Origin: Naegleria gruberi
Lineage: Eukaryota
Strand: one strand, 5' to 3'
DNA: 64,000 nucleotides
Assembly (NCBI GenBank): GCA_000004985.1
Contig: GG738847.1
Part shown: piece after piece, positions 3,749 to 63,477 of the stretch
Layout: the number at the start of each line of letters is the position of its first letter
Numbering within the stretch: the first letter of the stretch is position 1
Position numbers and translations under genes: made by a program
Notes under the pieces: model-generated
Databases searched by the model: none
What the model was told of the DNA's origin: nothing
The model's input: only the letters and a program-made list of their open reading frames with translations

Positions 3749-3894
3749 TATGTAATAAATTGAGTATTCACTTTCATTGGTAATCATTTTCCGAATCAAC
3801 TTGTACAATAAAAGTTGGCGCCTAAAATTATTCAAATAAAACAACATTAAAAAAAACCTTAGCTTACCGAGTATAGATTACTTATCATCATCAA

Positions 3895-6800
3895 ATGTTA
3901 TCGGGATTTAAAACCTCAATAATTCATATCAACATTGTAACATTGTGTTTGTGTAGTATTACTCTTCTCTTCATATCAACTATATCGGGTGTGAGTTGTT
4001 CGTTATCAGAAGAGTTTGTTCCTGCACTAAAAAACCACAATTCAACTTCAATCCTTTATCAAAGCAAGTATGGCCACCTATCGGATAGATGCTACAATCA
4101 GTTCATCAAGAATTTCATATTCAATCAGACGATTCTTTCCTTTGATAGAAGGACTATGATACTTGGATGTTTCTCAGGAACTTTTGCAGAAATGAAATCA
4201 TGCCACGATAGAATGGAAACACAATTCAGAAAGAGTACTTTCAAAGAGTGCTCATATTCAGATCAGTGCTTACTATTTGGTGACAATCCTTCATTGGTTT
4301 TCAAAATGTATTCAGAACGGGCAAGAAGAAGTGGAAAAGATGAATACGCCACCTTACTTGGAACATTTCCTTCAAAATGCTCGCAAACCATTGTTGAATC
4401 ACTAATTGGAAGAGAGGCAATTATATTCTTCTTTAAACAATCAAATGTGAGCGTTGAACTCACAAAAGAGCTTGTAAGGGGGTTCTTTAAGGAAAACCTC
4501 CAAAATCAATGCGGAAATTACACTGAAAATGCTTTAGAAGCATTAAGAATATTTGTACAGGAGATGCCAAAAGGAATGTTCAATTTTCTTTCCTTTTTAG
4601 AGTTTCAAGAAAGGGTCGAAAAGGATACAGTTTCCTTTCGGTTATTGTTTGATTTATCGATACTCATATCTCTTATCATTAGCACTCTTGTCGTAATAAG
4701 CAGAAAATCTAACAATACCAATCCTGTCTCAAACTCCCAGCCACAATCACAGAAAATGTTCCAACTTGTGAAAAATATATTCTTAAAACTGGACAATCAT
4801 AATCAGAACATTTTGCAAGCAGAATCTTTGATTAAAGCTAGAATAGAAAAAAGTGAAAAGCTTAAATTAGCCATCAATGATCAAGAGAATAGAATATCTG
4901 AATTGACCAATAACTTCAATAGGATGCTAAATGGCTCAAAAGCAAAAGATAATACAATCGCTAAAACAATGGAATTACTGAATGAAATCAAAGATGCAAT
5001 TCAATCCGAAAAAGGTAGAGAACCATTAGATGTATTTAATATGCCCTATTATTTGAAGCAATTGTTTAAAGAGAAATCCGAATCTGAAACTGCTTGTAAG
5101 GAGAAGAATGTTAAGGTTCTCGCAGAGAAAAAACAGCTTGAAGCGTTGAACAAGGAACTAAAGGATAGAATTGAGTTTATTGTTTCAGACAATGAGGATT
5201 TAGGATTAAAAGTAGGTCTACTTGAAGAATCATTGGGCAATCAGAAGTCAATTACTCATTCATTGGAAGACTCTGTGCTAAGCCAGTCTGAACAAATAAG
5301 CAAACTTCTTCACTCTTTGAAGATGAAAGAGGATCAGGAACAAAAAGTGGGAACAGAATTGGAAATTTCAAGAAATGACGTGAAGTTATTGGAGAAACAT
5401 CTGAATCAAACCTACTCTTATTTTGGGATTTTAGAAGAGAAGAATCCTGAATCAATACGTTCATTTGTTGAAAGTCTGAGAAATGAATCAGAAATTAAAA
5501 CAAGAGAAATTGAGAAACTCCAGGAACAAATAGCTAACATTGAAGAGATCTCAGACGAAAAAATTGCCAAGATACTAGAAATCGAGTCAAGAGTTACATC
5601 CTTGCAAGATGAAAATAACTCCCTGAGGTCTCAATTGCATATCGCAACAAAGAAGATCGAGTCAAAATATGAGAAAGCTTCCGATAATCATGAAATTCTT
5701 CTAAAAGATCTAGAAACTGTTAAAAGAGACCTCGAGAAAACGAAATTGGAGCTTGCTTAAAAATCAGATTTGCACAATTCTCTCCAGCTGGAAATTCAAC
5801 AAGCAAAAGAACAACAGAGCAGATATCAACAAAAAATTGCAGAAATAACTGAAATATCCGAAAATCATTTAAAAAAGATAGAATCAATTACGGATCAAAA
5901 TGATTTTATGGCAAAAACCATCGAATTGTTAAAAGAAGAATCCAAAGTGGAAGCAATTGGAAACAAGTGTGAACAATTGGAAAAAGACAATGCCCAAACA
6001 CTTATTGATCTGGCAAAAACAAGGTCAGAACTTTCTGCATTTAAACTAAAATATGAAGAGAGATGTAAAGTTTTAAGCAATGAAAGATCAATCATGGAAG
6101 AAAAGGTTAGAGATATTTCCCAAAAATATGAGAAACTGTGTGCAACAGTTTTAGAACGAAAGAAAGTTTTTGAGGAAGCAAAATCAATCATTGAGGAAAA
6201 ATCAAAGAGGGTGGAAGAGCTTTCTGTTATTGTTGAAACATTAAACGAGAGTATGGAGCAGAAGAATTGTGAACTTGTTTTGAAAGAAAAGAATATTGAG
6301 GAGCTAGTAGATATTGTAAACCAAATCAAGTCATGTTTCTCATCTGCACAGATTGAAGGTGACAATTCAATTACTTCTATTGTTAAAGAAATGATGGAAA
6401 AGCAACGAGAAACTGTAAATTGTTTGGAAGTGGAGGTAGAAGGGTTGAGAGGAACTCTGAGTAGTAAATCACAGATATTTGTTGATTATCAATACAAGAT
6501 TGATGAAATAACAGAAATATTAGAAGTTAGGTCAAAGAGAATAGATGAGTTAGATATTGAACTACAATTTCTTAAGAAGGAAAAAAGTAATTTAGAAAAT
6601 GAAATTATTGAGCTAAAGAAATTAATGGAAGAAAAGGAGGTAAAGTTGAAGGAACTAGCAGTTAGTTTGAAAAAGCTCGCTTTAGAAAAGCTTAGCAGTG
6701 AAACTTGTCTGAATGATGAAATAGAGAGTCTTTCTAATGAAAACCTATTGATGAAAGAGAAAATAGATAAGATGAATGAAGCCCTGTCAAAGAAAGTTAA

Positions 6801-7080
6801 CAAAATTGATGATGCCTATAACTATATTGAAGTTCTCAACTCTGAAAGTGAGAACCTGTGTTCTTTGAATAAGGCAATGGAAGATAAATATCTGAAAGTT
6901 CTATTTGAAAAGAAACAATTCAATGAACAAAAGGACAAGTATGAAAGAATTATCGAAGCATTAAAATCACAAAACGAAAAATTACTTGATGAATTGAACA
7001 ATCAACAAATGATCCTACTCAAAATGGAAAAATCAAATAAGAATGCATTCGAAAAGGAATCCAAAAACCAAACAAAATAA
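3895..7080 (+). CDS. Large coiled-coil protein with an N-terminal signal/TM segment, a Cys-rich region and a second TM. Two ORFs (3895..5760 and 5770..7080) lie in the same frame and are separated only by an in-frame TAA at 5758-5760.
   Basis: ATG at 3895. The hydrophobic N-terminus is MLSGFKTSIIHINIVTLCLCSITLLF and a TM lies at LLFDLSILISLIISTLVVI. The heptad-rich E/K/L sequence continues unchanged across the TAA (…KLELA*KSDLHNSLQLEIQQAKEQ…). Both ORFs have the same frame (coordinates ≡1 mod 3). No GT..AG spans the stop. Confidence 0.5.
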
Positions 7081-7180
7081 ATTAATACTGTTGTGACAGC
7101 AGTTCAACAAAATGAAAATGCAATTAAATATTGAAAAATGATAAAGAAAATGTATTGTATGCGAAAAAGATTTAAGTAAA

Positions 7181-9984: not shown

Positions 9985-10003
9985 TTTTTTTTGTGTGTTT
10001 TTT

Positions 10004-10014
10004 GAACCTGCAGA
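10004..10014 (-). promoter_or_regulatory. TATA-box-like element upstream of the zinc-ribbon gene
   Basis: The minus-strand sequence CTATTTATAAT lies about 30-40 nt 5' of the ATG at 9984. Confidence 0.3.
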
Positions 10015-10346
10015 TTATAAATAGGCTCTTAATAAATGTGTTGTTGTAAAAAGTAAATAATTTGGTCTGACCTCTATTTGAATCGATTTTGTAAAGAACT
10101 CCATCTACACTTTATGTGCTCTTTTCTCAAACTCAATGAGTGAAAGGAATAATCTGTAAACTCTGTTTTGGTGTGCTTTTTTTTTCGCGTTATTGTTTTT
10201 ATTGGTTCTTCTTTTCTTCTTGCTTGACCATCAACAGAAGGCTTTTGGCAAAAGAAATTTTTGCGAATTAAAAAAATAGCGAAATATTTTCCATTCACAC
10301 CCCTTGCTGCACGTGCATGAAAAGAAAAGCTGAACAACCACAAGAA

Positions 10347-11298
10347 ATGAGCGAACAAAAGACTGTTAAATTCTCTGAAGACACCAAGGATAACACTGAA
10401 GTTACTCCTAGTGTTGCTTTCCCTCACATGATCATTCACGCGTAGGTTTTGCAAATAATTGAAAAAATATATTTAATAATAATATTGGTGATGATTAAAT
10501 ATTAATTTGATGAAAATAGTTGGCATGATCTTGATGTCGGTTCATCAGAGCTCTTTAACGCCCTTATTGGTAGGTATTATTATATTTTGAATAATTAGTG
10601 GTAGAAGATAAATTTGTTTATAATTCCGTTATTGTTAGAAATTCCAAAAGGATGTAAAATCAAGTATCAATATGATACCAAGTACGGTCTCTTGAAGGTT
10701 AGCCACATTCTTAGCAGCTCGTAAGTAGAAATAGAAATATTCACAATTTATGAATTTGGATAGTTTGCTTTATCCAGCAAATTATGGTTTCATTCCACAA
10801 ACCTTGGGTGAAGATAATGATCCAATTGACGTTTTGGTTTTGATGCAAGCCCCTTGCCATCCAATGAGTATTCTTCGTTGCCACCCTATTGGTGTTATGC
10901 CATTGATTGACAATGGTGAACTCGAATATAAGATTATTGGTATGTAGAAGGAATTTAATAATTGTGGCTAAAACATGTCACTAATAGCTGTTCACGCTGA
11001 TGACCCAGAATACAGAGGAATTAACGAATTGACCGATCTTAGACCACACATTTTGAACGAAATTAAGATTTTCTATGAAGATTATAAGAAATTGAATAAG
11101 GATAGTGTTTCTGTTGTTGTGAAGGATATGTTACCAAGGGTTGATGCTTTGAAGATTCTTGAAGAAGGTATTGAACGTTATAAGGATTACGTTAGACAAC
11201 AAAAGAAGTCATTGACTTGTACAAGATATGGTTCTTATCAAAACTTGTTCAGAGGTGGTGCTGATTTGAGCAGTTTTGTTGATGAAGATGATGAATAA
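10347..11298 (+). CDS. ppa: Soluble inorganic pyrophosphatase (family I), 5 exons: join(10347..10441,10520..10569,10639..10720,10764..10939,10988..11298)
   Basis: The spliced product is MSEQK…[76 protein letters not shown]…[12 protein letters not shown]…FYEDYKK. This matches conserved PPase motifs (WHDL, YP.NYGFIP, DPIDVLV, DDPEY). Introns are 78, 69, 43 and 48 nt with GTAGGT/GTAAGT/GTATGT donors and TAG acceptors. The gene ends DEDDE-TAA. Confidence 0.9.
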
Positions 11299-11391
11299 AT
11301 CCTCTCTCTCCGATAATTATTAGAATTAAATTAACAATTTCACTTTGAAAAAAAGAAACAAAAATGAAAGTTCTCTTCATGGCGTAGGTAA

Positions 11392-12142
11392 ATGATTGTC
11401 TTTAACATATCAATGACTCACTCTAAAAAGAATCAATATAGCATGTCAAGTGCTGACATGTTGTTTTACATTAGGATTTGCTATAGGAACTTTTGTTATT
11501 TACATGGAAAATTATTCAACATCAGAGAATATTGCCTTCTGCTCGGAAAGAACATTATTAACTTTACTTGTTGCTTGGTCGGGATTGGATTTCCTCTCTG
11601 TTTTATTTAGCTTATGTATTATAGTGAGTGCATTCTTTGAAAATTGTTTGCAACAACCAAAACGTCGGAGGAGAAGATTGGATGATAATATTAATCAATT
11701 TACATCAATTACTTTTCTCGGATTGAAAATATTAACATTTATTGGTTCATTGGGGATATTATGTTATTTAACTTGGTTATTATTTGTAGAAGATTGTGAA
11801 AGTATTAATAATTCACTCTTTGTTTCCATCACCATTATTGTAGTTTGTCAATGGTTTTGCATTACAGTAATGGCTTGTTGTTTATTCTGTTCATTGACTG
11901 GATTATTAGGATATTTAATTTTCATTGGATTGACGGCAACTCAATTAGATAATACTAGATATTTCTCAAATGACGACTCTAAAACTTTAGGAGCCTCCAT
12001 TATGGAAGATCACAATAGACATGAAGAGGAAAAGAAACTTCTCAAAAAAGAAAAGGACTATAAGGACAAAATTAGGAAAATATATGACCCCTATCAGAGA
12101 CATTACATTCCTGGTACAAACATTCCAGATCCCAAATATTAA
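11392..12142 (+). CDS. Small polytopic membrane protein (about 4 TM segments) with a charged C-terminal tail; the start is ambiguous. An ATG-initiated ORF 11392..11610 overlaps the main ORF 11450..12142 in the +1 frame.
   Basis: The main frame (11450..12142) encodes a TM-loop-TM pattern (GFAIGTFVIYMENY…TLLTLLVAWSGLDFLSVLFSLCIIVSAFF…) but has no ATG before ~11505. The upstream ATG at 11392 lies in the other frame, which is open until TAG 11608-11610. Confidence 0.45.
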
Positions 12143-12522
12143 TATTAATTGGACATCTGACTCACAAGTTGACTTCCAACTATTATAATTTTGTAACACC
12201 ATTGTACATTACACTATTACAACAACCATCGATTGGGGAATTAATGATTACACTTTCCTTAATGAAAGGACTTCCAACTGCTCCTCTCTATCTAATCTCG
12301 TATTGTTCATTTTCAATGAGAGAACAATGCACTTGAGGAAGGAGGTGGACTGTCTAAGGCTCTACGACAACAAATGAGATGATTATTTTTGAAAGAAGAA
12401 CGAAAAGGAGTTTGCAAGTTCGAATTGGAAATTAGAGAAAATCATCGAACCAGGTTTGTGTTCGCACAAATCAAACTCTCTTATGAATAAAAGGTGATGA
12501 AAACAAGCCACAATACAAAAAA

Positions 12523-17615: not shown

Positions 17616-20600
17616 CTAAAGGAGTAAGAAATTACAAATCATCACAACCATGACGAATACTGATGCAACAATCTTACCAGAACCATTAACATCAGTACTA
17701 TGTATTGGAACAGTACCATTGTTATTATTGTTATTGTTATTATTATTGTTATTGTTTGTAGGAGAACCTGAGCTAGTAGCAACAATCACTTGTTTTGATT
17801 CGTCCACAACAACCAAATCTGTTGTAGCAGCAACAGATGAAGTTGAGAACAATGAAGCAGTTGGTGTGAAAGTAAATGAAGTCTTAACCACTGCTGCACT
17901 ATCTTTCTTCACCAAATTAATTTGGAGCAATTGATCAATGGTTGAAACAGTACATGCACTAACAGTGTACAATGTCGTCAAATCAGTTGACCCACTCTTA
18001 ATCATATCAAAGATCTTACTTGGATTTGCATTAATATCAGCAATTCCCTTCACATCAAATGGATGGTCAGGATTACTATTGTAAACCATAAATTCGGTAT
18101 TTCCAGCTGTTGCTTGATTAATCCAAACCATGTCGACAGTTGTTGGTTTCAAATCTTCCAAAGTCAATTTCAAAGCACATTTTGAAAGTAAATTGAATTG
18201 AACTAAGGTACCAGTTGTCTTGGAGAAGGCAATTGGCAATCTCTTAACTGTTGAAGTATAGGAATAACTTGAAGTGGCAATTGAGTTGACATCAGTAATT
18301 GATGGAGTTGCCTTTACAGTATTGGAATTGACAGACATGTCATAGACACATGTGGCATCGGTACTTTCAGCAATGAGAACAAGACCAATTTTGTTGGCAG
18401 TTTTGGCATTGTTCAAGTCAGCTGCCAAATCCAAATAAAAGTTTCCATTGATGGCTGGATCCATTGTAATGGAAGTTGCGTCAATTTCTCTTCTTGCAAT
18501 GGTCAAAGTTCTAGGAAATACTTGCTTCCAAAAAGATGGAAACTGAACTTGTCTTCTTGTTGGTGACCTTAATTTGAATAAACCTTTCGGCTGTTCCAGT
18601 ACAAACATTCGAAATGTCAATACTAAACAGTGCAACCTCACCTACCTTTTCAGCAACCAAATTATTGATTGATTTGGTATCTCTACTCATTTCTTTAGAA
18701 TCAACAACAATATTAGAATCATAACTCATTACAACACCTGTTGCACTATTCACAATTCTCAAATATAAAGTCTTGGCATTGATATCTGTCATCCTGACAG
18801 CTGAACACTTCATACCATAATAGCTAAAATCAGAATTTGGACCAATAACCTTAGTTTCAGATGGAACACCACTATTAAGAATATCATTGTAAACAAATTG
18901 AAGATTAATTTGATTGGTTGACATCATTGACACATCACCCTTATTCAAATATTCATCAGCAATTGGAAAAATTGTTTCACCAACTCCATAATTAACCATG
19001 AATGAACTACCATCATTGAGAATATTGGTATAGAAATCATTTGCAAATTTGAGTTTACCAGCACCTTCCAAAGAAGTCATTGACAAATATGGATAAGTAT
19101 ATCTATTCAAATTAATGATTAATCTTCCAGAACGGAATGGATTTACAATCTTGGAATTGAAATCCATGATATTGTAAGGAGCCATACCAATTTGCTTAAT
19201 TGTGAAACTTTCATCAAGTGGAATGACAGTTGCCAATAAAATCTTATCAGTATTTCCAATATTCATATTTTCCAAAGTCAAGTGGAAAGTATATTCAGTT
19301 TCCTTATCAATATAATTGAACTTGGCACCATTTGACATCTTGTACATGTTTCCAGATGTCCATGCTTCTGACAAGGTCAAACTAAATTTACCCCAAGCTT
19401 GCATTGAGAAGGCATAACGTGGATAATTAGCAGCAGTATCCAAAATCTTCATAAAGATAATTGGGTTTCCAACCTTTTAGTAAGTATATGAGAACCAACC
19501 ACCATAAGTTGTTGTGCTTAATTCAAAATCAGTTGTCACTATTTTTTGATCTGTGAGAATTGACATGAAAACAACATCACTTTCACGTGGGGCATCATAT
19601 CTGAGAATAAAATCGACTTCACCTTCAATGATATTTTCCTTAGTTGGATCAGGAGTTGAAGTAAAGATGAAAATTGGAGTTTGAGCTGTTTTGTAAACAA
19701 CCTTAATAAAAGTGCCATCCTCCATGACTGTTCCATCATTGACAGTTTGAGTGACATCATAATCACCTTGAGTAATAAGAACGTCATTTTGAGCAGTATT
19801 GGTATTCAACATATTCTTATAAACTTCAAATTTAAAATATTTCTTTGTAGTTCCTCCATTTGGAATACTAATTGTGGCCAAAGTGACTCCTTGGACAGAT
19901 TTAGAAACAGTGAAAGGTAATAGCATCTCCTTTGGCAGCTACATAACCATACTTGACATAGTAAAAGTTATTATTGGCATTCTTAATATTAAATTCATAG
20001 AATGCTGGAGTTGACTTGAACTCTGGTTGAACAACGACTGGAACTGGAACAGGATCTGAGGCTGGATCTGCTTTACCAACATAGTTATTGGCTCCTGGAA
20101 CTAAGTTACCATTACTATCTGTAGTAGATTCAGCATACTTTGGTTTTGGTGGACTCATGGTCTTGAATTTACCACTCATTGAGGCAATTTCAGTTTTACC
20201 AACTAATTCTAATTCCTTACTACCACCAAATTTCTCAGATTCATAATAGAAAATTAAATTGTAATAGGCGCTCAATTTACAATAAGCTGAAACTGAATCA
20301 CCTTCAATCAATCCTTCGCCAATCAATTCAATTCTGAAACGAGGAGCAATACCAACATAAACAGAGGCCAATTCCTTAACACCCAAAATCTTAACATTGA
20401 CTTCAACACCTGGAATCAATCCAAAGTAAACATTGGTCACAGCATTTACTTCAATCTTTGGTGGATCAGATGAGAAAGTAATTCCATCTCCTTCCTTTAC
20501 AGTACTATAAGTTCCATCATTGTACTCATAACCCAATGTCTTTTGGATGAGTAATTCAAAGTTTCTACGATAGGAAATTGTACCAGTGGCTTCGATTTTA

Positions 20601-21849
20601 CCTTTGAATTTAAGACTTGGAAGTACGGAGACAGTTAATACTGGAACAGCACTAATCATGATTGGAATGGTAACAGCTGGAGCTTTGAGTAAGAGTTTTT
20701 CAATATCCTTTTCGTATTTTGCTGTGACTGCCAGTCTGACATAACCAGATGTCTTCCAACTACCACCAACTGTTGCACGCAAGGTCTTTAAAGTGATCAA
20801 TTTGATATTGACCTTCAATGAGAATTCCATAAAGATTCTAGAGATACAATCTTCACAGGCAACTTCAAGAGATTCAGCCTTATAAATTGGAATGTTATTA
20901 TTAATTGGTGTTCCAGAACTATCACAATTAATATTTAACATTGGAGTGGTGTAACTTGCGGATCCTTCATAAGTTGGATCTGGAAGAGCAGCCTTGACAG
21001 TTTGATAGGCATTGTTGACAGCACCACCAACAGCAGCACCTGCCTTCTTGACTGAATTCCAAGCATCACTCAATCCCCAGAGAACTTTTCTAGAGATTGG
21101 TGTAACTCCTCTTGAGTTAACTCCAATTTCTGCCTCCATGAACAATTCAGCAGGAGACATGGAACGAGTTTGGAAACGAACTCTCATCATATTTCCTTCA
21201 TGAGCTATGATTTCACGCGTGAGGACAACATTGGTTGTGGCAGGATTCTCAGCACGATCTTCTTGACCTCTGAAACAATTCCACTTTTCACTAATGATGA
21301 ATCTTGTACCAGGAATGAAACGAGAGGCAGTACGCGCGTGATCTGAAAAGTCAATGGTGATGGAGTCATCAGTTGGATCACACTTGACGTCCCATACATT
21401 GAGTTCTCTATCAAGATTAACAATACCAGAGAGAGCTGTACCTTCAACTGAATAAATCTTCATGGTGTTACCTTCTACTCGACCAACATTATGTCTAATT
21501 GGAGCATAGTCGACATTTCTCTTCAATTTATTGATACTTCTCTTGTTGGTTCTCAATTCAATTTCAGAAGCACCCAAAGTATAGGTATTTCTCAAGTGGA
21601 ATGGATCTCTTCTCAAAGCTTGAAACAATTCCTCACCGGAAATGAAAGGACTGATGGTAGCGGAAGTTGTGGAAAGTCGATACCTTCAAAATTCATCTCA
21701 AGGAAGGATGAGGAGTGAAGGGATCTTTTGGCTTGTCCCTTCAATCCAAACATTCTCTTGGAGGGAAAGACAGTCATCTTGGATGTTGGTGTGTTTGCCA
21801 TGGCTAACACACTCATCACCACCAACAAGACGAAACTTGTGAATAGCAC
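17616..21849 (-). CDS. Very large (~1400 aa) beta-rich surface protein with a C-terminal GPI-anchor-type signal. It is assembled from ORFs 19901..21628, 19477..19926, 18511..19452 and 17616..18641, which are linked by +1 frame changes and one in-frame TAA rather than by introns.
   Basis: The C-terminus reads …SGSPTN(13)GTVPIHSTDVNGSGKIVASVFVMVVMICNFLLL, a poly-N spacer, omega-site-like region and hydrophobic tail. An N-terminal signal-peptide-like ORF (LFTSFVLLVVMSVLAMA at 21613..21849) has no in-frame ATG and sits in the −1 frame relative to the body. Junctions 19901-19926 and 18511-18641 are +1 overlaps. ORFs 19477..19926 and 18511..19452 share a frame and are separated only by TAA 19477-19479. 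Confidence 0.5.
17718..17757. repeat. (ATT/GTT)n trinucleotide repeat; it encodes the poly-Asn tract of the GPI-anchored protein on the minus strand
   Basis: gttattattgttattgttattattattgttattgtt. Confidence 0.8.
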
Positions 21850-24604: not shown

Positions 24605-25460
24605 CTATGAATTAGCAAATAAATCAATTAGATTGTGGAATGGCTTTACAATTTTAAATGAAGAGAATACACCAAGAAGAACTCCCATCACAACAATAAC
24701 AATAGATGATGCCAGAGCTGCAATGATAGCAATAATCATGGTTCCTAGATAGTTCCATTGAGGAACTGAAAATACAAATAACCTGTCAAGAAGCAGTGTC
24801 ATTGGGAAAATAAGGAATCATCATACTTACCAATTTACATTAGCAGAATTACATAACCTGTACATTAAAAAATCTGTCCCCGAAAGATAAAAACTTGAAT
24901 GAATCGCAGCTAAGTGAGTCCAACTTGCTTTGATACCTCGTATATATAAAGTTACCAACAGTTTCTACTTCTAAAACACCAAAATTTGTTGCCTTCTTAC
25001 GCTCTTGATTTCCCTTATCATCCCACTTGGCTACAGGAACTTCAGGATAACTAGAGGCCACGATAAACTCAGTTTCAATTTCAATGACAAAGGCAAGTGA
25101 ACCAGTTATTTAACTTGTGATTTCCTTCAGATAGCTACTAATTGTAGCCACAGAAATATCAAAACCAAAATACCAATCAAAGTTGAATCCTGTGGCCGTT
25201 TGATTTCTAGATGGTCTTGAATTGACCAAACTCATAAAGGTAATGGAAGGAAGTGTTGGGTCAGTGTAGGAGAGCGTAAAAGTTGGTTTGTTCACTTGGT
25301 CCGATGCCACTCCTAGAATGTAACTCATATCAAATGGTGGTAACTGTACATCTGGTTCCCTAGATTGTGTATGACAATATTCATACAATGTCATATTATC
25401 ACAATAGGTCCAAAACTGACCTGTTGAATTCACAAACAATATGCTTGGAATTCTCACCAT
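24605..25460 (-). CDS. Hypothetical type-I membrane glycoprotein with a C-terminal TM (MIIAIIAALASSIVIVVMGVLLGVF). Three ORF pieces; pieces 1 and 2 share a frame and are separated only by TAA 25110-25112. The junction between pieces 2 and 3 is unresolved.
   Basis: ORF 25110..25460 and ORF 24849..25061 are in the same frame, and 16 sense codons (ITGSLAFVIEIETEFI) lie between the TAA and the next ORF. The C-terminal TM ORF 24605..24802 is in the +1 frame. A GTAAGT lies at ~24818. Confidence 0.35.
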
Positions 25461-26170
25461 TCATCATCTTTCCCTTATTTCCTTCGTATGGATCTCCAAC
25501 ATACGAATCTATCATTAAAGTGGAGAGGAATTGGTATTAAGATTTGAAAATCTTGTAGGTGATCAGGTTAATCCAATCAGTGTTCGCATAATCCAAGTCC
25601 CACTAAAAGTTTACATCCTTTTAAATCATACTTGGGTTTTCGGGAGATTTTACCAACATTCAATATAAAATAAAAAATAAATACAGACACTTAGATTTGA
25701 GAATCCAAATTATATATTTTATCTTGAGATAATCTCTTATTTGTTATTCCAAGAGATGATCCTCGCCAAAAACTACACATTAATATTGCGAGTCCCAAAG
25801 CATGACATTTGACAGTTGCTGAGGGATGTGTTTGACTTGTATACGTGAACATCATTCTATATTACCTTATAATATCGTTGGTTCATGTATTGCTCTCTTT
25901 ATCACTAAATAAAAAGTTGAATGATGTATAGACAACTTTCGTGTAAAAACTTGTTCTCCAGACATGCTCATCTCCTAAATGAAAAGATAAAAATCTTTGA
26001 ACAAAGTGCGCCAGGTTTCGAGATGAAAAAGTTGTCAATATTTCATTATTCTGTTATCTCTAATGATGGCAGGTTTTGGGATAACAATTTCAAGGATTAG
26101 GAAATTGAGTGTGTTTGCATAGAATCACAATACATCAACAAGCAAAGTTCTTTTAGTTGCAGCAAACATT

Positions 26171-30729: not shown

Positions 30730-30810
30730 TTTTTATTGTAAAAAATTACATAAGTTAAATTAAAATCAAAAAGGAAATATTTTGAGTTTAAAGAGGTTAA
30801 GGAAAAGGTT

Positions 30811-30883
30811 ACAGCGAGCGGGGCTTGAACCCGCGACCTTAAGCGTGTTAGGCTTACGATCTAACCAACTGATCTATCGCTGC
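30811..30883 (-). tRNA. tRNA-Val (anticodon AAC)
   Basis: The minus-strand sequence GCAGCGATAGATCAGTTGGTTAGATCGTAAGCCTAACACGCTTAAGGTCGCGGGTTCAAGCCCCGCTCGCTGT folds into a canonical cloverleaf. It has a 7-bp acceptor stem, D-arm GATC/GATC, anticodon loop CTAACAC and T-arm GCGGG-TTCAAGC-CCCGC. Confidence 0.85.
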
Positions 30884-42339: not shown

Positions 42340-42412
42340 GCCGACATAGCTCAGTTGGGAGAGCGTAAGACTGAAGATCTTAAGGTCCCTGGTTCGATCC
42401 CTGGTGTCGGCA
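42340..42412 (+). tRNA. tRNA-Phe (anticodon GAA)
   Basis: GCCGACATAGCTCAGTTGGGAGAGCGTAAGACTGAAGATCTTAAGGTCCCTGGTTCGATCCCTGGTGTCGGCA is a near-canonical eukaryotic tRNA-Phe with acceptor GCCGACA/TGTCGGC, anticodon loop CTGAAGA and T-loop TTCGATC. Confidence 0.9.
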
Positions 42413-47311: not shown

Positions 47312-48355
47312 TTACTTTTCAATCTTTCTTAAAGCTTGTTCCAAATAGAAAGGATAAATTAGATCAACAAATTCAGCCCATTCAAAAGCAAGTAAAAATG
47401 GATAATCTTGAACAATCTTTTCCTTTTCTTCTTGAACTTTGTTTAAAGCTTCTTCACTTTCCTCTAGAGCAGATCCAACTATACAGAAATCAGCATCATC
47501 CATACTATTTGTAATCTTTCCATCTCCATATCCAACAAGAAGATGACAATGTTTAAATGTAAGACTTGATGAATCATTAGTTGCAATAAATGATTCAGCC
47601 AAATAAACATTCCTTCCTTTAAGTGGTTTATCCAATCTTTGAACACCATATTTTTCTTCTTCTTCCAATGAACATTTTCCATCTGTAATCCATTTTGTTG
47701 ACATGATTTTCTTTCCTGTTGCTAATGCTTGTAATACTTTCATTGTTCTAGCAAATGGTGGTGCAATAACATGAGTCACATCATCAGTCAAAGTATCTGA
47801 TAGATTACCACACATGTTAAAAAACATGAATCATGACTACATACCAATATCTGCAGCTTGTTCTCCAGCAATTTTAACTCCAAGTGATGTTGCAATTTGT
47901 GTCAATTCCTTTTTCAATGTTTTACTAAATCTATCAGATGAATTTTTAAAACCACTAAATGTGATCACAATTTCTGGTGATTGTGATGTTGTTAATTCTG
48001 GTTTTTCAAGAACTTGATTACCAATAACAGTTGCTACATTAGATTCTCTTTTAACTTTCTTTGCACTAGGTGATGTGGAAGCAAAATCTGTTGATACTAC
48101 TGCAGAAGCACCAGAAACAGCCGATGATAAAGATGATGATGTTTGGGATACTCTAGAAGTGCTTGGTCTATTAGGCTTAGAAATTTCTTCATGTTTTCTC
48201 TTTGTTGAAGATGATGAAGATGAAGATGGCGTGGCGGTTTTACTCTTTCTTCTATCTGGTGTTTGTGATGATTTACCGTTCAAGGATGATGAAGATTCAT
48301 CAATATTATTGGTTGCTTCCGTGGCATTACTTTCCTTGCTTCCTCCTAAACCCAT
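47312..48355 (-). CDS. BRCT-domain protein with an MGxxxS N-terminal motif and a Ser-rich linker, 2 exons: complement(join(47312..47796,47845..48355))
   Basis: A GTATGT…CTATCAG intron (47797..47844, 48 nt) joins …ITFSGFKNSSDRFSKTLKKELTQIATSLGVKIAGEQAADIG-D-TLTDDVTHVIAPPFARTMKVLQALATGKKIMSTKWI, which matches BRCT consensus. The start is MGLGGSKES. Confidence 0.6.
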
Positions 48356-48464: not shown

Positions 48465-51061
48465 TTATTCTTCATCATCTGGTTTGTGAGTATTGATATA
48501 ATCAGCCAGTTTTCTATCTGTATAATTAATGTGTTTCACTAACCAATTAATTAAATAGTTCAATAATTCAATGTCTAAACTTGTGGCATGACTTTTCAGA
48601 TAATCTTTTTGCATATTTTTCATTTTGGTTGTAAATGTCAAATGTTCTTCATGATGTTTTTTCACATATTCCTCTCCAATTCCCTTCTTGTATTTACTAT
48701 TATTTCAATAATAGAATATTCAATAATTATTACAATTGTTGTACAATATTGATGATGAATTATTATTAAATTTTGTTAAAAATAAAAAACAAACCTCAGT
48801 AACTGTTCCTCATCAGAAAAATGAAATTCCGTATATTCAATTAAACATCCAATTGTATATCCAACAACCCAATGACTTTGAGAAGTGAGTGATGCTTCAC
48901 TTAAATTCTTTAACCATTCAATTAATTGAGCATGTTGTGAATCAATTTGATCACATCCAACTGCATATTTAGTTGGATCCCATGATACAGAAACTAGAAG
49001 TGAATTACGACGTGACATGTTTGACATTCTACTTTGTAATTCACTTGATGAATTCGATGGACTAAATTTGGTTTTCTTCTTCTTATTACCGAATATTGAA
49101 CTCCAAAAACCTTCTTTCTGAATACCAGCATTATCTTGCTCTAATTCCTTTTCCAATTTTTTCAAATCAATATCACGTTCTTTAGCTAATTTATCAATTG
49201 TCTTTTTTTGATTATTCTTAATTTGTAAACTTTTGGATGGGTAGAGATGGTAGAGTTCTTTAATCATTGCAAGTTTTTCATTTCTCACTGCAATATGAAG
49301 TGGTGTATCGCCTACCTTATTAATTACATCTAATTGAATTTCTTTAGATCTAATTAGTAATTCAAAAATTTCCTCTTGTTCTGCCAGCACTGTTACATGA
49401 AGTGGTGTTAATCTATTTTTTTTTATATATATATATTTAAATATTCATATATATTTAAGAGTTAGTTCAATATCAGAGTAAAAATTAAAAGAGTTATATA
49501 AAATAGAGTCAATAAAAAATGAAACATACCCATAAACAGAATCCTTCTCATTAAATAACAATTCCAATTTATCAGAATCTCTTGCTAAACATTTAACAAT
49601 ATGTACCAATGATTCCATATATCCCTTTGAACAGCAATGATGAACAACAGTTTGACCCTTATCATTCTTCATGAATAATAATTTCAATAATTTCTCTCTT
49701 CCAATTGTATTTTCACAAAAATCAATTAAATATTTTGTAATCTTTTCATGTTTAACAGCTCTAAATAAACAACTTTCTTGTTTTGTATTTTTTCTAAAAA
49801 TGTTATGTTTTAAATCTTCAACAATGAATTGAACTTTTTCCAAATCACCTTCTCTACATGCTAAATGTAAAATTGTATTTCCACAATAAACTTTATATTC
49901 AATATCAACATGAAATCCTAATAAAGTTCTTGCAACTGTAAATCCTTTTGATTTGTTAATACTATTTAAGGAAACTGAAAGTGGAGATGCTTCATATTTA
50001 TCATGAGTATTTAAAATAGCTCCATTAATAGCTAACATGGTTACTGATTTAGAATGAGCACTTGAACATGCATAAAATATTGGTGTTGCATCTGACCTAT
50101 CTTTAGATTCTAATAAATCAGGTTGTTTATCCAATAAATATTGCATCACTGTTAAAAAATCAAATTTTGAAGCTGTATGAAGAAGTGAACATTTAGTTTT
50201 TGAATCAATTAAATCTTTTTTAAAATCAATTGTTGAATTATTACAATTATTATGCGTATTATTATGGATATTATTACTATTTATAGTAGTATTTCCATTA
50301 TTAGAATTGTTAGAAGGACTAGTAGTAGATGTATTATTATTATTATTATTATTATTAGAATAAAATAAATAAGATTCTATTAATTGAATCATTTCTAACA
50401 TTTCACTTTCAGTCATTTGAGTTGAATGATGAAGTAAATATGTAATTTTATACAAATTACTTGAAATATATTCTCTAATATCATTTTCAATGACAAATTT
50501 TGATGAAATATCATTGAGTTTGAGACAATTATTATCTGATAAACTTGTGTCTGGATTATTATTCATACTAATACCACTACTATTGGTACTTGCGATAATA
50601 ATATCGCTATTATTATTTCCATTAATAACTCCGCTAACCGTATTATTGCTATTATTATTTTGAATTAACATTGTTTTATGATGTATGTAATCTAAATAAT
50701 CAGTTATTGATTCATTTTCTAAAACTGATGATTCCTCATGATCATGTACAATTGAAGTTAAATGTTGACTACATAAAATTGCAGTTGAACCTTGAATGAA
50801 ACTATTCGAAACTAAATGTTGTTCTTGATCAATATCCTCATCATTATCATCGGATGAATCATCATCATCAATACTAATATTACCTATTTTTGAAACTTTT
50901 TCCAATGATGAATTATTTAATCTGAAGAGTGAATGTGAAGGATGAAGTGGTTTGCTACTATCATTAATTCCTATTAAACTTAATCTTTTGGTTTGTTCGT
51001 AAACGTTAATGATGTCAACTAGACCAAGACGTTCATCTTTCATTTTTTTTTTATTTGACAT
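48465..51061 (-). CDS. Ankyrin-repeat protein with a C-terminal hemerythrin-like (HHE cation-binding) domain, 3 exons: complement(join(48465..48696,48795..49412,49530..51061))
   Basis: A GTATGT…AAATAG intron (49413..49529, 117 nt) joins …NEKDSVYG-LTPLHVTVLAEQEEIFELLI…GDTPLHIAVRN (ANK). A GTTTGT…AATAG intron (48697..48794, 98 nt) joins …SDEEQLL-S-KYKKGIGEEYVKKHHEEHLTF…INWLVKHINYTDRKLADYI, which carries hemerythrin H/E motifs. The ATG is at 51061; the listed ORF starts at TTG 51097. Confidence 0.65.
50330..50358. repeat. (ATT)n trinucleotide repeat; it encodes a poly-Asn tract of the ankyrin-hemerythrin protein on the minus strand
   Basis: gtattattattattattattattattag. Confidence 0.7.
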
Positions 51062-54052: not shown

Positions 54053-54307
54053 ATGGCCACAACAAACAGCCAGAGAGTACAAAAGTCTCGTAATTTCAGG
54101 AAATTTTCTAAAAGGTTCTTCCAACAAAGTAAGAACAACGTTGTTTCTCTTTCTATTCACAAAGAGGTAGCAAGTGTTGAACAACAGAATCCTTCCACTC
54201 CACCGATAACTAAATCATCAAATATTANNNNNNNNNNNNNNNNNNNNNNNNNNNNNNNNNNNNNNNNNNNNNNNNNNAGTAAGTTTACTCTTATTATTAA
54301 TTATTGA
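54053..54307 (+). CDS. 5' exon or fragment of a gene that runs into the assembly gap. The sequence resumes with a GTAAGT-like motif immediately after the gap.
   Basis: The ATG ORF MATTNSQRVQKSRNFRKFSKRFF… continues up to the N-run. agtaagt follows the gap at 54278. Confidence 0.2.
   Translation: MATTNSQRVQKSRNFRKFSKRFFQQSKNNVVSLSIHKEVASVEQQNPSTPPITKSSNIXXXXXXXXXXXXXXXXXSKFTLIINY
54228..54277. other. Assembly gap (50 N)
   Basis: A run of 50 'n' characters. Confidence 1.
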
Positions 54308-57536: not shown

Positions 57537-59393
57537 ATGAATGATAATTCAGCCTATTACTTGTCATCAGAGACACCCATAATGAATCCACCCTTTCTTC
57601 TTTCATCAAATCAAGAAGATCCATCATTACTATCAATAAATAATGTTGGATATGGTGGAGTGGGAGATTTGAATGAATCAACAGATCATTTACTAGGATC
57701 CAATGAAGTAGTTGATAATCAACAACAACAATTAAATCATGATGATTTAAATAATGAACATGAAGTTATAATTAAGAAACAACTTCCATCTAAAACTAAT
57801 TCCTTTTCAACTTTTTTAAATTTAACTAAAACATTTGCAGGTGCATCAACTTTTGCTTTACCTTGGAGTTTTAAACAATCTGGATTACTGACAGGTGTAT
57901 TAATTGTATTATTTCTTGCTATTTTAAGTAATTACACAATGAAATTATTGATTAAATGTAGAAGATATATACAGTCACAAGAAGAATATAAAGAATCATC
58001 TGAATATTGGAAGATTAGACCAGTAAGATTACCAATTTCTCATAAAAAAGAATTAAATGATGAAGGAAAATTAATTAATTTACCAATTTATCCTAAAAAA
58101 CATTCACCACCTAAAACTATTGATGAAAATGGTGAAATTATTACAACTATTGAAAAGTCAATTGATCCAAATGATTATATTTATGAACAAGATAGAATTA
58201 TAACTTATATTGATATTGGATATGAAGCAATGGGTAATTTTGGAAGTATACTTGTATATGTATTAATGGTTATGTGTAATGTTGGTGTTGGTACAATTTA
58301 TTTAGTTTTAATGGCTGGTTGTTTAAATGGAATGGTTCCAGAAGTTCCATTAAGAGTTTGGATGTTATTTTTCATTCCACTTTTCATTGTACTTTCTTGG
58401 ATTCGTTCTTACAAATATTTAGCACCACTCACAATGATTGGAACTATTGCTTTATTATTGGCCCTCGGTTCTGTACTTGTTTATGGTTTCATTTATCAAA
58501 GACATAATATGAAATGGCCATGGGAATATGCTCATGTTGCTTGGATTGAACCTTCTACATTGGTATGTTATTGTGAATTGATTCTTTGAATGATTGTTAA
58601 TTGTTAATGATTGAATGATTGTTAATGTGATTGTTAAATGATTGAATAATTGTTATTCTTGATATATAGCCACTTTGTATTGGTAATGTAATGTTCTTGT
58701 TTTGTACTCATACAATGATGTTATCAATTGAACAATCAATGAAAACAAGAAAAAGATACTATACTACTCTCAATTTTTCATTCATTTTTGTAGTTATTGT
58801 TAATTTGACATTTGGATTGGTAAGTTTAATCATTATTTCTCTCTCTAACATATTTCACATTATATTAATGTCATGAATAATAGTTGGTATTTGAATTCTT
58901 CCCTTATAATATTGAACAAAGTGCAACTGAAAATCTTCCACAGAATTCCATTTTTGTCTATATAATTCAATCATGTTTATGTTTAGAAGTTATATTAACA
59001 TATACAGTTGTATTAATGCCAGTTGGTGAATTATTTGATGAAAAGATTTTACAAAAATTATTAGAAAAATTGAAGAGATTTGTCAAGAATCAAAAATTCT
59101 CTAAATTTCTCTATTTCCTACTGAGTGTATTATTTAGAAGTTTAATTGTTGTTATAACAGTTGGATTAGCAGAGGTATTTGGTGATAGATTTGGAGTAGT
59201 CATGTCATTCATTGGCGCACTTTCACCAAATCCATTAGCTTTTGTTTTACCTCCACTTTTTTATTTAATTATTATGAGAAAGACAATTTCATTACCTACT
59301 TTTATTTTAAATGCTTTTATTATTGTATTTGGTGTTTTAACAATGGTATGGAATACTTATTCAAGTATAATGTCAATAATTAATGAAAAATAA
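57537..59393 (+). CDS. Amino acid transporter (AAAP / SLC36-SLC38-like), 3 exons: join(57537..58562,58670..58819,58884..59393)
   Basis: The N-terminal signature is FSTFLNLTKTFAGASTFALPWSFKQSGLLTGVLIV. Introns are GTATGT…TATATAG (58563..58669, 107 nt; it contains a tandem 'tgattgttaa' repeat) and GTAAGT…AATAATAG (58820..58883, 64 nt). They join TM segments in frame (…STL-PLCIGNVMFLF… and …LTFGL-LVFEFFPY…). I place the ATG at 57537; the ORF at 57516 starts at TTG. Confidence 0.7.
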
Positions 59394-59814
59394 ATGAAAA
59401 ATAAATGAATGCTTAGTTAATGATTAATCTTTTAGTAAATTCTAACCCTTATCTGTTTTATATGGAGATATTTTTGTAAACAACAATGTTAATATGTTCC
59501 AAAGACATTCGCCTTTGGAGATAGATATTGTGCATGTTTTTACTCCTCACTGCTATTGATGATTGAATTTACAATAGGAAGGAAAATTAAAATGGAGATG
59601 ATGATAATTAATTTTCCATCACTGCGATGCACACTCTTACTAAAATTGTCCTATTCATAGATAAGGTGCGTACTTTAAATTAAAAAAAAAGCCTCAACAA
59701 CAATCAACTTGAACCTATTTTCTTTTAAATCCTCATCGACAACAATATTATAGGCTATATAGACTATAATTATACAATCTACACCAACAAACAAACGATA
59801 TACATTTTACAACA

Positions 59815-61167
59815 ATGACAACTTCAACAGATACTGATAGTCAATATTCATCTGTGGTCGGAAAAGAAATTGATGATCATGATGAACAACCAACACTTTT
59901 AGATGTTTTATTATGTTGTTGTATGCCATCACTAAGACCTTCACGTTTAATTTATTCAATTTTATATCCAACATTGAATACAATTTTAAATCAATTTGGA
60001 AATTTTAAACTTGAAAAGATTATTAGAAATATAGTAACTCATCCAATCACTAAATTTATAACTATTCATTATGTTAAAATAATTAGTGTATTAACTTATT
60101 TAAGCATATCATTAATACTTTCAGGATTAGGAGCATTCTTCTTTTCATTAATGTTATTAACTTATTATAGACCACCAACACAATTTGATCATCCAATCTT
60201 TTTTATTAGAAATGGAACAACATTAAGTGCTAATGTGACACTTTTATCACATGATACCTCTAAATCACTTGTTCAAAATGGATTGTATATTGATACTTTT
60301 AAAGTTAAATTTAATTTACCTGAATCAAATGTAAATAGAGATATTGGAATGTTTTCAATTCATGCAGAATTTTATGATAGATATAATTCAAAACTTTATT
60401 CAACATCTAGAAGTGTATGTGTTAAATCTTTAAATCATTCTCAAGGTTTTTCTCAGAGTATTCTCAAATATAAATCAGTAATGAGTGAATTAGTTAATAC
60501 TGTATTTTCATTACCATATGCTTTATTAGGAAAAGCTGATGAAACTGAAACTCAATCTGTTGATATGTTAACTGAAACACAATTATTAGAATTTAATTCA
60601 AGAGTTGTACAAAGAGCTTCACATGTTTATGTTTGGTTATCTCATGATAATTTACAAATTTATAGCAGTAGTATTCAATTATTTGCAAGGGTTACTGGAG
60701 TTTGGCATTATTTGTATCAATATCCAATCACTTGCTTTTTAATTCTATTCCCAATGGCTTTTCTTTCAAATATGAGTGGTTATTTATTTGTTGGTGCCTT
60801 TTTATTTTACAAATTTATTTACAGTAGTGGAAAATCAAATAGCATTACTACTAGTACAATTACAAAACAATCTATTAAGCAACAAGCAACTTCTAATGAA
60901 AGTTCAACTACTTCAAGAAAGAAAAAGATTACAACAACAACTGTTAGAAGAAAGAAGATTATTCATACCTCATCATCTGATTCTATCAGTGATGATAATG
61001 ATAGTATTGATGAGGACATTAATGAAAATATTGAGAATGATGAACAACAACCAAGTAGAATTGATTCACCTTCTCAAAGCTCTACAACAAGTACAACAAA
61101 AAGACAAGCTGCCTCAAACAAATTGAAAAAGAGATTAAAGAAGAGAATTGAATTACAAGATGAATAA
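59815..61167 (+). CDS. Seipin (Fld1/BSCL2 homologue; lipid-droplet biogenesis). Two TM segments flank a luminal beta-sandwich; the C-terminus is Ser/Thr-rich.
   Basis: The seipin core motif is KVKFNLPESNVNRDIGMFSIHAEFYD (compare L.LPES..N..LGMF). TM1 is LSISLILSGLGAFFFSLMLL and TM2 is ITCFLILFPMAFLSNMSGYLFVGAFLF. ATG at 59815; intronless. Confidence 0.7.
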   Translation: MTTSTDTDSQYSSVVGKEIDDHDEQPTLLDVLLCCCMPSLRPSRLIYSILYPTLNTILNQFGNFKLEKIIRNIVTHPITKFITIHYVKIISVLTYLSISLILSGLGAFFFSLMLLTYYRPPTQFDHPIFFIRNGTTLSANVTLLSHDTSKSLVQNGLYIDTFKVKFNLPESNVNRDIGMFSIHAEFYDRYNSKLYSTSRSVCVKSLNHSQGFSQSILKYKSVMSELVNTVFSLPYALLGKADETETQSVDMLTETQLLEFNSRVVQRASHVYVWLSHDNLQIYSSSIQLFARVTGVWHYLYQYPITCFLILFPMAFLSNMSGYLFVGAFLFYKFIYSSGKSNSITTSTITKQSIKQQATSNESSTTSRKKKITTTTVRRKKIIHTSSSDSISDDNDSIDEDINENIENDEQQPSRIDSPSQSSTTSTTKRQAASNKLKKRLKKRIELQDE

Positions 61168-61495
61168 ACTGTTAAAACCTTAAATTGATGATAAAACAAT
61201 CAGAAATCATTATTCTCAAAAATGTAATATCCTTAACCTTCTTGATGTATTCATGAATCACTCATTAAATGTTGTGCACCTTAATCAATGTTGTATGACA
61301 ACTCAAGAATGTATTCTTCCTCTGATACAAGTTGTTTATTAAAATCAGAGTCAATGGATGATACAAAATACAACATGCTGCTAATTCTTTCTCTCGGTAA
61401 GTTGTCAATGCAAAGAAACACGGAAAGCCTTCGGCATTTGAATAAAAAATATTCCAAATTACAAAAAAAATACAACCACTTGGAAAACCCTTATA

Positions 61496-63207: not shown

Positions 63208-63477
63208 TCAACCTAAATTTATTAAATAATTTATAATTTATCTTAAGTTCCTCTATTCTGTGTATTTGAGTCATTGATATCATTGATATCTATCCTTTCA
63301 ACACAATTTTATTTTGAATTGTTCCATTCCCAACTAGCCTGAAAATTCCCTCCATTTAAAACAACACAAAAAAATTCAATTAATTACCAACAACTCTTAG
63401 CATCATCCTCACTCTTGTTTAAATAATAATTTGATCATCAAATAGTTTAAAACAATCGGATCAAATACTTATAGAGG

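Follow-up and report, generated by a model that had tools for sequence, protein, structure and literature searches.

Three in-frame TAA codons in a 64,000-nt window of Naegleria gruberi are probably recent nonsense alleles

In 64,000 nucleotides of N. gruberi DNA, referred to here as the window, three genes are each interrupted by a single in-frame TAA codon, and we consider that these codons are probably ordinary recent nonsense alleles in fast-evolving genes that are restricted to Naegleria. The DNA is that of strain NEG-M, as four ORFs in the window are exact matches to RefSeq proteins. A preliminary description of the window had reported three single TAA codons, each followed by A and each flanked by long ORFs in the same frame, and examination of the sequence confirmed this in coordinates as well as in frame (Table 1). 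Both halves of each gene show the codon bias that marks the long ORFs in the window, and only in the frame that they share. Chance cannot account for such long same-frame ORFs on the two sides of one stop in DNA of 32% GC. The data show that the three TAAs are in frame, that they are exonic, and that they stand in a normal terminator context, and from the evidence given below we infer that they are of recent origin and that they are alleles. One detail had to be corrected: the TAA in gene 3 is followed not by 16 sense codons but by 36 up to a probable GTAAGA donor and by 86 up to the next in-frame stop.

A probable course of events is that a single-base substitution in a sense codon (CAA, AAA, GAA, TAT/TAC, TTA or TCA) gave rise to each TAA. 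If TAA is decoded as a stop in all three genes, translation would halt there, as the public annotation assumes for gene 1, and the alleles would most likely be null or truncating. Alleles of this kind would be tolerated either through the dispensability of the genes or through shelter by an intact second allele in a heterozygous mitotic diploid, and Naegleria has been described as a mainly heterozygous diploid that reproduces mitotically (PMC9928731). The downstream ORFs would be remnants whose frames have stayed open only because so little time has passed, the age of the mutations being of the order of the differences between strains. Of the three explanations that had been offered earlier, recent nonsense mutation accords with the whole of the evidence, whereas readthrough is unsupported and base-call error is unlikely.

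Table 1. Positions in the window of the three in-frame TAA codons, of the parts of the genes that carry them, and of two control introns
Feature	Positions	Strand	Description
Gene 1, in-frame TAA	5758-5760	+	LELA(stop)KSDL; 627 open codons upstream, 439 downstream
Gene 1, upstream ORF	3895-5757	+	621 codons from ATG 3895
Gene 1, downstream ORF	5761-7080	+	439 codons, in the frame of the upstream ORF
Gene 2, whole reconstruction	17616-21685	-	
Gene 2, 5' ORF	19953-21685	-	
Gene 2, junction	19868-19952	-	85-nt GTATGG..TTAG intron or frameshift
Gene 2, exon upstream of TAA	19480-19867	-	
Gene 2, in-frame TAA	19477-19479	-	SYTY(stop)KVGN; 153 open codons upstream, 321 downstream
Gene 2, exon downstream of TAA	18646-19476	-	
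Gene 2, GTAGGT intron	18591-18645	-	Alternative possible acceptors at 103 or 121 nt
Gene 2, last exon	17616-18590	-	Hydrophobic GPI-like tail at end
Gene 3, reconstruction, partial at 5' end	24605-25460	-	
Gene 3, ORF upstream of TAA	25113-25460	-	
Gene 3, in-frame TAA	25110-25112	-	EITS(stop)ITGS; 116 open codons upstream, 86 downstream
Gene 3, segment downstream of TAA	25001-25109	-	
Gene 3, intron	24910-25000	-	GTAAGA..TTAG
Gene 3, exon	24831-24909	-	
Gene 3, intron	24783-24830	-	GTAAGT..ACAG
Gene 3, last exon	24605-24782	-	Transmembrane helix and short tail
Control intron, canonical	49413-49529	-	GTATGT..ATAG, 117 nt, 15% GC; contains TGA 49445-49447
Control intron, canonical	47797-47844	-	GTATGT..TCAG, 48 nt; contains TAG 47837-47839

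Gene 1 encodes a membrane coiled-coil protein. Inspection of its upstream ORF shows a Cys-rich domain and a transmembrane segment besides a hydrophobic N-terminus, as well as the first half of the long coiled coil. The heptad register of this coiled coil is unbroken across the TAA. The public model EFC49523.1/XP_002682267.1 (522 aa) is 100% identical to the translation of 4192-5757 and has this TAA as its stop codon, and a second model, EFC49524.1, begins in the same frame at the ATG at 5905, 144 nt past the TAA, with a 390-aa product that also matches exactly. That RefSeq carries two models would fit a reading in which the ORF pairs are separate neighbouring genes whose shared frame is coincidental, and intergenic gaps of about 100-150 nt do occur in the genome, for example at 3749-3894. 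Against this, the spacer at 5761-5904 is stop-free in the shared frame, as are 4.6% of intergenic windows, and its codon bias of 0.33 bit/codon is reached by 0.3% of them. When the upstream half of gene 1 was used as query in an exhaustive search among 1.84 billion representatives, the sole homologue was N. lovaniensis XP_044546154, which aligned to gene 1 residues 107-558 with 29% identity. The comparison with an orthologue that had been proposed earlier was run for gene 1, and the N. lovaniensis protein is a single uninterrupted ORF of 801 aa that passes the position equivalent to the TAA and extends about 270 aa beyond it; the downstream ORF of gene 1 is weakly similar to its C-terminus (z = 2.5). 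No other homologue of gene 1 was found by a word-index search, which also missed this 29%-identical orthologue and from the results of which N. gruberi's own proteins were absent. The split at the TAA, the coding-like spacer, the unbroken heptads, and the single-ORF orthologue show that gene 1 was ancestrally one ORF that the annotation has split, and that NAEGRDRAFT_62295 and NAEGRDRAFT_45700 each represent one half of what was a single gene for a membrane coiled-coil protein. Genes 2 and 3, in turn, have no ATG-initiated, signal-bearing start past the stop, and it is later exons, beyond the stops, that encode the GPI tail of gene 2 and the transmembrane helix of gene 3. It is thus very improbable that the ORF pairs are separate genes.

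Gene 2 was reconstructed as a large surface protein of the GPI-anchored type with a codon bias of 0.39-0.41 bit/codon in every piece, and by word-index search it had no homologue outside N. gruberi. An intron of 479 nt that would span both its junction and its TAA was rejected because the phases mismatch and because it would remove a 153-codon ORF with strong codon bias. The idea that gene 2 is a pseudogene with several lesions was also rejected, as the apparent frameshift at about 19.9 kb can be read as an 85-nt GTATGG..TTAG intron; the GC content of this candidate intron is 0.41 and that of real introns is 0.15-0.40. Gene 3, a single-pass membrane protein, has a weak codon bias (0.17-0.18), and no stop-free spliced path leads into it from the upstream ATG at about 25854. 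The practical use of these findings is in annotation, in that genes 2 (17.6-21.7 kb) and 3 (24.6-25.5 kb), too, are interrupted.

It had been stated earlier that no GT..AG intron can remove any of the three TAAs. Taken literally this is not so, because about 200 GT/GC..AG pairs per site were listed as keeping the frame open, the longer pairs having been tested on the downstream side only, and one of them is a 69-nt GTTAAA..CCAG pair around 5758. Moreover, the TAA in gene 2 lies within ACTTACTAAAAG/G, a sequence that looks like a branch point with an acceptor after it. A non-consensus intron might on these grounds remove the TAAs, or the transcript might be repaired, for example by U-to-C editing of UAA to CAA. 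The earlier statement does hold for donors of the local consensus, of which there is none in the 270 nt that precede each TAA. All nine introns identified in the window begin with GTA[AGT]G[TA] (GTAAGT, GTATGT, GTAGGT, GTAAGA), and the closest donors of this form stand 274-546 nt ahead of the TAAs, within open codon-biased sequence; in gene 2 there is none within 473 nt upstream. In line with the earlier view, splicing is a very unlikely explanation of the stops, since no candidate pair within 270 nt has a donor of the local form, and the candidate introns would, in addition, delete open, codon-biased sequence and in gene 1 break the continuous heptad register. As to editing, we know of no precedent for U-to-C changes in the nucleus, and removal or repair of the TAAs in the transcript is scarcely credible. 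Only two further stops separate coding-strand ORFs that share a frame, and both are inside canonical AT-rich introns (Table 1, control introns). Apart from the three TAAs, the TGA is the sole coding-strand stop of the long same-frame class in the window, and the TAG stands between two ORFs in one frame with 174 and 172 open codons. The only unexplained in-frame stops in the window are the three described here.

Elsewhere in the window TAA is the normal terminator, as it ends 14 of the 15 long ORFs, and therefore the earlier view that it is not simply reassigned was upheld. The base that most commonly follows genuine stops is A (7 of 15). The pyrophosphatase gene ends with DEDDE-TAA and the CCT2 gene with QRE-TAA, just as had been reported, and the alignment of N. 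lovaniensis CCT2 extends through its last residue to the codon that precedes the TAA of CCT2 in the window. No in-frame stop was found in the conserved genes that were checked (CCT2 and pyrophosphatase), nor in the other long ORFs, which include genes with Pfam domains (M14 peptidase, ankyrin, AAA-ATPase-like), whereas genes 1, 2, and 3 had no Pfam domain in a Pfam search. The widespread in-frame stops, conserved positions included, that go with reassignment of a stop codon are absent from the window. Just two tRNAs, Val(AAC) and Phe(GAA), are encoded in the 64,000 nt of the window, and neither is a suppressor.

These observations also bear on programmed or context-dependent readthrough, or a dual meaning of UAA, in which some ribosomes would decode the TAAs to give full-length as well as truncated proteins. 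Such decoding would agree with the long intact codon-biased ORF after each stop, with the longer form of the gene 1 orthologue in N. lovaniensis, and with the identical tetranucleotide TAA-A at all three sites. The three hexanucleotides are TAA-AAA, TAA-AAG, and TAA-ATA in genes 1, 2, and 3, respectively. For random nonsense substitution in these genes the mutational expectation is that about 48-57% of the stops are TAA and about 38-43% have A at +4, and the probability that all three are TAA is 0.11-0.19 and that all three have A at +4 is 0.06-0.08. The joint probability of three TAA-A signals is about 1%, for a pattern that was picked post hoc, and as evidence the pattern is weak. Besides, genuine terminators in the window occur most often as TAA-A, and among the stop signals of eukaryotes UAA with a purine after it is the tightest and least leaky. 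The known readthrough contexts, CARYYA after the stop and CUAG after UGA, are absent at all three sites, and the 120 nt downstream of the stops fold no better than shuffled sequences (z = +0.66, +0.49, and +1.14). The set of tRNAs in the window and the lack of in-frame stops in the checked conserved genes and, outside introns, in other coding-strand ORFs also speak against readthrough, and we regard it as highly unlikely. Among the literature matches listed, none dealt with recoding of stop codons in Naegleria, the one listed paper that combined Naegleria with a stop-codon term being concerned with trypanosomatids, and a literature search with the locus tags found nothing relevant.

Like the known cases of programmed readthrough (the TMV-type UAG-CARYYA, the mammalian UGA-CUAG, and those in Drosophila and Anopheles), the genes described here have a long open coding-like extension past the stop. 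Unlike them, they have UAA and a purine without a known 3' motif or structure, and the extension is not a C-terminal add-on but hundreds of codons of the core protein. Stop codons are ambiguous or reassigned in Condylostoma and Parduczia. In Blastocrithidia nonstop, UAA is both a Glu codon and a stop (PMC12153298). As in these three organisms, TAA is found in the window both within reading frames and at the ends of genes; however, in-frame stops are frequent in them and occur in conserved genes, whereas the window has three in roughly 13,000 codons, each of them in an orphan gene. There is little chance that N. gruberi reads UAA-A as sense at some internal positions, with termination that depends on position or context as in Condylostoma or Blastocrithidia, or repairs the codon at the RNA level. 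If UAA-A were decoded, full-length surface and coiled-coil proteins would be made, the annotation would be wrongly split, and N. gruberi would be the first member of the Heterolobosea with a recoded stop codon. With decoding of the stops the observation would gain greatly in importance, but no evidence here points to it.

The main rival to recent nonsense alleles is an error in the consensus of the draft assembly, by which at least one TAA would be miscalled, the true codon would be sense, and the genes would be intact. The stops are one base away from sense codons, the frame is kept, and nothing else disrupts the downstream ORFs; the scaffold is of draft quality, an N gap falls within the window at 54228-54277, and at a T that stands before several A's (TAAAAA, TAAAAG, TAAAT), as in each of the three stops, a miscall is conceivable. 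However, changes that create a stop are only about 5% of substitutions, and at an error rate of at most 1e-4 no more than 0.25 such events are expected in 64 kb, which makes three miscalls very unlikely in an assembly that we take to be about 8x Sanger. Errors should also fall on conserved genes and orphans alike, yet no conserved gene is struck. Lastly, over an overlap of about 4.3 kb with independent Illumina metagenome contigs, located away from the three codons, the differences resemble real polymorphism, being mostly at third positions or in noncoding sequence, and disrupt no ORF. Consensus error is therefore unlikely, though it merits more weight than the other alternatives.

The same overlap gives a scale for the age of the stops if they are nonsense alleles. 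It comes from a close strain in ENA sample ERZ929261 that is 99.2-99.6% identical to the window and whose noncoding and synonymous sites differ from those of NEG-M by about 1.6%. Downstream of the three stops about 1,160 codons are still open, and since nonsense changes are 5.4% of substitutions, as computed for genes 1-3, the stops should be less than about 1.6% of neutral divergence old; this bound falls to about 0.6% when frameshifts are counted at an assumed rate of one-tenth that of substitutions. At half of the divergence of about 1.6%, about 17 nonsense changes would be expected in the window's 13,000 or so codons without selection, and three survivors in weakly constrained genes are unremarkable. 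Several points run counter to nonsense alleles. The joint probability of about 1% for the three TAA-A signals carries some weight even though the pattern is post hoc, and the similarity of the gene 1 downstream ORF to the C-terminus of its orthologue is weak. Three hits within 20 kb, in a roughly counted 30-35 genes, is a high local rate, and no clearly independent second lesion is proven in any of the three genes, the two candidates, the gene 2 junction at 19868-19952 and the 5' end of gene 3, both being ambiguous. In lacking a proven second lesion these genes are unlike old pseudogenes, and their downstream ORFs are indeed fully open with a codon bias that is normal or higher. Exact look-ups with 20 guessed ORFs or models and with the window proteins yielded, besides the RefSeq models, only two ENA contigs, which match other parts of the window, and two scans of JGI metagenomes for sequence of other strains at the stops gave no match.

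A premature stop specific to one strain is known from FLO8 in yeast S288C. The three genes resemble nonsense-interrupted genes in general, that is recent unitary pseudogenes, segregating null alleles, and gene models that draft annotations have split, in that a single stop of the substitution type lies in an otherwise intact ORF, in that they are weakly conserved, and in that the inferred age is comparable to the divergence between strains; in gene 1 the sister-species orthologue is also uninterrupted and the annotation is split at the stop. Unlike in typical cases, three lie within 20 kb and all have TAA-A. If the stops are heterozygous, they would be an example of a mostly clonal, heterozygous diploid amoeba carrying null alleles in dispensable genes. 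In N. lovaniensis, an in-frame TAG is present at 7161-7163 of locus L003, which is a different and possibly retroelement-like gene. Finally, homology between the gene 1 sequences of N. gruberi and N. lovaniensis reaches upstream of the annotated Met in both, and both models look truncated at the 5' end.

The three TAA triplets that interrupt gene 1 (membrane coiled-coil protein), gene 2 (GPI-type surface protein) and gene 3 (single-pass membrane protein) were found, when the sequence was re-read, where the preliminary description had placed them, in frame and each with A at +4, and they are genuine in the public sequence and had been rightly observed. We consider it likely that each is a premature stop of recent origin in a lineage-restricted gene, which is biologically ordinary. 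When coding was scored against the codon frequencies of 15 other long ORFs in the window, the shared frame was positive on both sides of each TAA and the other two frames were not. Stops with at least 80 open codons on each side in one frame occur at seven sites in the window, three of them being these TAAs. TGA 49445 falls within an AT-rich intron of canonical form, the sites at 48015 and 56970 are, by their positions in the ORF list, antisense to minus-strand genes, and 43037 has upstream of it a stretch of weak codon bias that, by the ORF lists, overlaps with the beginning of the plus-strand gene at 43186. An intron likewise holds TAG 47837, which separates two ORFs of one frame. No Pfam domains were detected in genes 1, 2 and 3, the conservation of gene 3 being assessed against Pfam alone, and a word-index search with genes 1 and 2, a method blind to distant relatives, gave no homologues outside N. 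gruberi.

Positions of the in-frame stops, the tRNA genes and the introns readable directly from the window
Feature	Position	Strand	Remarks
Gene 1 stop, TAA	5758-5760	+	…TKLELA*KSDLHN…; open codons in the same frame, 627 upstream, 439 downstream
Gene 2 stop, TAA	19477-19479	-	…GGWFSYTY*KVGNPI…; 153 upstream, 321 downstream
Gene 3 stop, TAA	25110-25112	-	…YLKEITS*ITGSLA…; 116 upstream, 86 downstream
tRNA-Val(AAC)	30810-30883	-	between protein-coding genes
tRNA-Phe(GAA)	42340-42412	+	between protein-coding genes
Introns within named genes			CCT2, 1; pyrophosphatase, 3; gene 3, 2; gene 2, 1
Other intron	47797-47844		
Other intron	49413-49529		

When 1.84 billion cluster representatives were searched exhaustively, the upstream half of gene 1 matched two proteins, EFC49523.1 of N. 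gruberi and XP_044546154.1 of N. lovaniensis (801 aa; 29% identity, E = 1e-28). EFC49523.1 (NAEGRDRAFT_62295, 522 aa) covers window 4192-5757, terminating at the TAA, and EFC49524.1 (NAEGRDRAFT_45700, 390 aa) starts at ATG 5905, the first ATG past it; thus the public annotation treats the halves as neighbouring genes, and one of the three stops is already visible there as a split gene. That the ORF pairs are truly separate genes is highly improbable, and four results say that the halves of gene 1 were formerly one gene. The spacer of 144 nt after the TAA is stop-free in the shared frame, with a codon bias of 0.33 bit per codon that is equalled by 0.3% of 48-codon intergenic windows. The core hydrophobics of the coiled coil keep the same two heptad positions across the TAA if the stop is given the place of a single residue, which also shows that the lesion is a substitution and not an indel. 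The orthologue comparison suggested in the preliminary description showed that the N. lovaniensis gene is a single uninterrupted exon (10001-12406 of its locus, L003) reaching about 270 residues past the point aligned to the TAA. Homology between the two species also runs upstream of the Met codon annotated in each (NQTILSFDRRTMILGC… versus NKTIIEFDETYDMLGC…; window 3895-4191 and L003 9896-10000) and therefore the EFC49523 and XP_044546154 models look 5'-truncated. The downstream ORF resembles the N. lovaniensis C-terminus weakly (z = 2.5 against shuffles), as is expected for coiled coils, and it is length and collinearity that are relied on here, not the z score. The N. gruberi ORF extends to ATG 3895 with a signal-peptide-like start.

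Gene 2 consists of four codon-biased ORFs (17616-21685, minus strand), the last two linked by one canonical GTAGGT intron, and its product of about 1,350 residues has a hydrophobic GPI-type tail at the C-terminus. Its TAA lies mid-way in a 430-codon stretch with a bias of 0.39-0.41. The 594-codon 5' ORF overlaps the next in a different frame, and this junction (19868-19952, minus strand) is either an 85-nt GTATGG..TTAG intron (41% GC) or a 1-nt frameshift, the composition fitting neither exclusively; a frameshift would give gene 2 two lesions. The gene 3 product is small, and two clear introns lie downstream of its TAA; no stop-free spliced path was found from this gene to an ATG upstream, which is followed by a possible signal peptide. 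A possible second in-frame TAA (25537-25539, minus strand; …KIFKS*YQFLSTLMIDSYVGDPYEGNKGKMMN…, +4 T) lies in a short candidate upstream exon which may be noncoding.

The donors of all nine introns are GTAAGT, GTATGT, GTAGGT or GTAAGA, with lengths of 43-134 nt and 15-40% GC. It had been stated that no GT..AG intron can remove the TAAs; as an absolute this is too strong since many arbitrary GT/GC..AG pairs preserve the frame around them, but in substance it stands, as the closest consensus-like donors are 274-546 nt upstream within open codon-biased sequence. Cryptic splicing or editing at these codons is very unlikely.

Readthrough or recoding of the TAAs, also proposed earlier, is very unlikely. 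The code of this genome is standard as far as known, and TAA proved to be the normal terminator here, ending 14 of the 15 long ORFs and, in the alignment with N. lovaniensis CCT2, directly following the last residue (TAA 63205-63207). Genuine stops in the window are followed by A in 7/15 cases and by C in 0/15. Termination in eukaryotes is most efficient at UAA followed by a purine, and readthrough is known from other contexts (UAG-CARYYA, UGA-CUAG, +4 C). The 120 nt after each TAA fold no better than shuffled sequence, the only tRNA genes in the window are those for Val and Phe, neither being a suppressor, and no in-frame stops were found in the conserved genes checked. With random single-base nonsense in genes 1-3, 48-57% of new stops would be TAA, and 38-43% of those would be followed by A. 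The probability that all three are TAA is 0.11-0.19 and that all three have +4 A is 0.06-0.08, jointly about 1% for a pattern that was chosen after seeing the data.

Of the options raised in the preliminary description, recent nonsense mutation is favoured by the split gene 1 and by a bound on age. About 1,160 codons are still open after the three stops (439 + about 600 + about 120), and 5.4% of substitutions in these genes create stops. Beyond about 1.6% neutral divergence, the chance that no further disruption had occurred is under 5%; with frameshifts at an assumed one tenth of the substitution rate the bound drops to about 0.6%. The strain in ENA metagenome ERZ929261 shares 99.2-99.6% identity with the window across 4.3 kb and differs by about 1.6% at noncoding and synonymous sites. 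This suggests that the age of the stops does not exceed that of ordinary differences between strains. For the three codons themselves, look-ups and two metagenome scans yielded no sequence from another strain. At half of that divergence, about 17 nonsense changes would arise over the roughly 13,000 window codons without selection, and three survivors among the least constrained genes are what one would expect. [quoted passage not shown] The main rival, assembly error, is unlikely though well ahead of the other alternatives; it needs three miscalls within 20 kb that each create a stop, every one in a non-conserved gene, and the differences in independent contigs overlapping the window are typical of real polymorphism.

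Four window ORFs are exact RefSeq proteins of N. gruberi NEG-M (941,567-bp scaffold), and CCT2, at the 3' end, is 91% identical to that of N. lovaniensis and 84% to that of Willaertia. A locus of a closely related Naegleria (Logan assembly SRR25266747) is locally syntenic with this end (window 58368-63793; DNA 83-94% identical, CCT2 protein 97%), with one block inverted (window 58368-59007). A contig of ERZ929261 (L004 1-2026; 99.6% identical) matches the window to 54227 and then runs into a 631-aa Transposase_21-family gene, and thus the 50-N assembly gap at 54228-54277 may conceal a transposon or be the site of a polymorphic insertion. On the minus strand of the N. lovaniensis locus, an in-frame TAG (L003 7161-7163) separates ORFs of 896 and 417 codons within a gene whose annotated product has 1,243 aa, a model that presumably skips the TAG by a short intron. 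Read in another frame, the site gives FDRFASNYNFKVPQYM, which is reminiscent of retroelement motifs.
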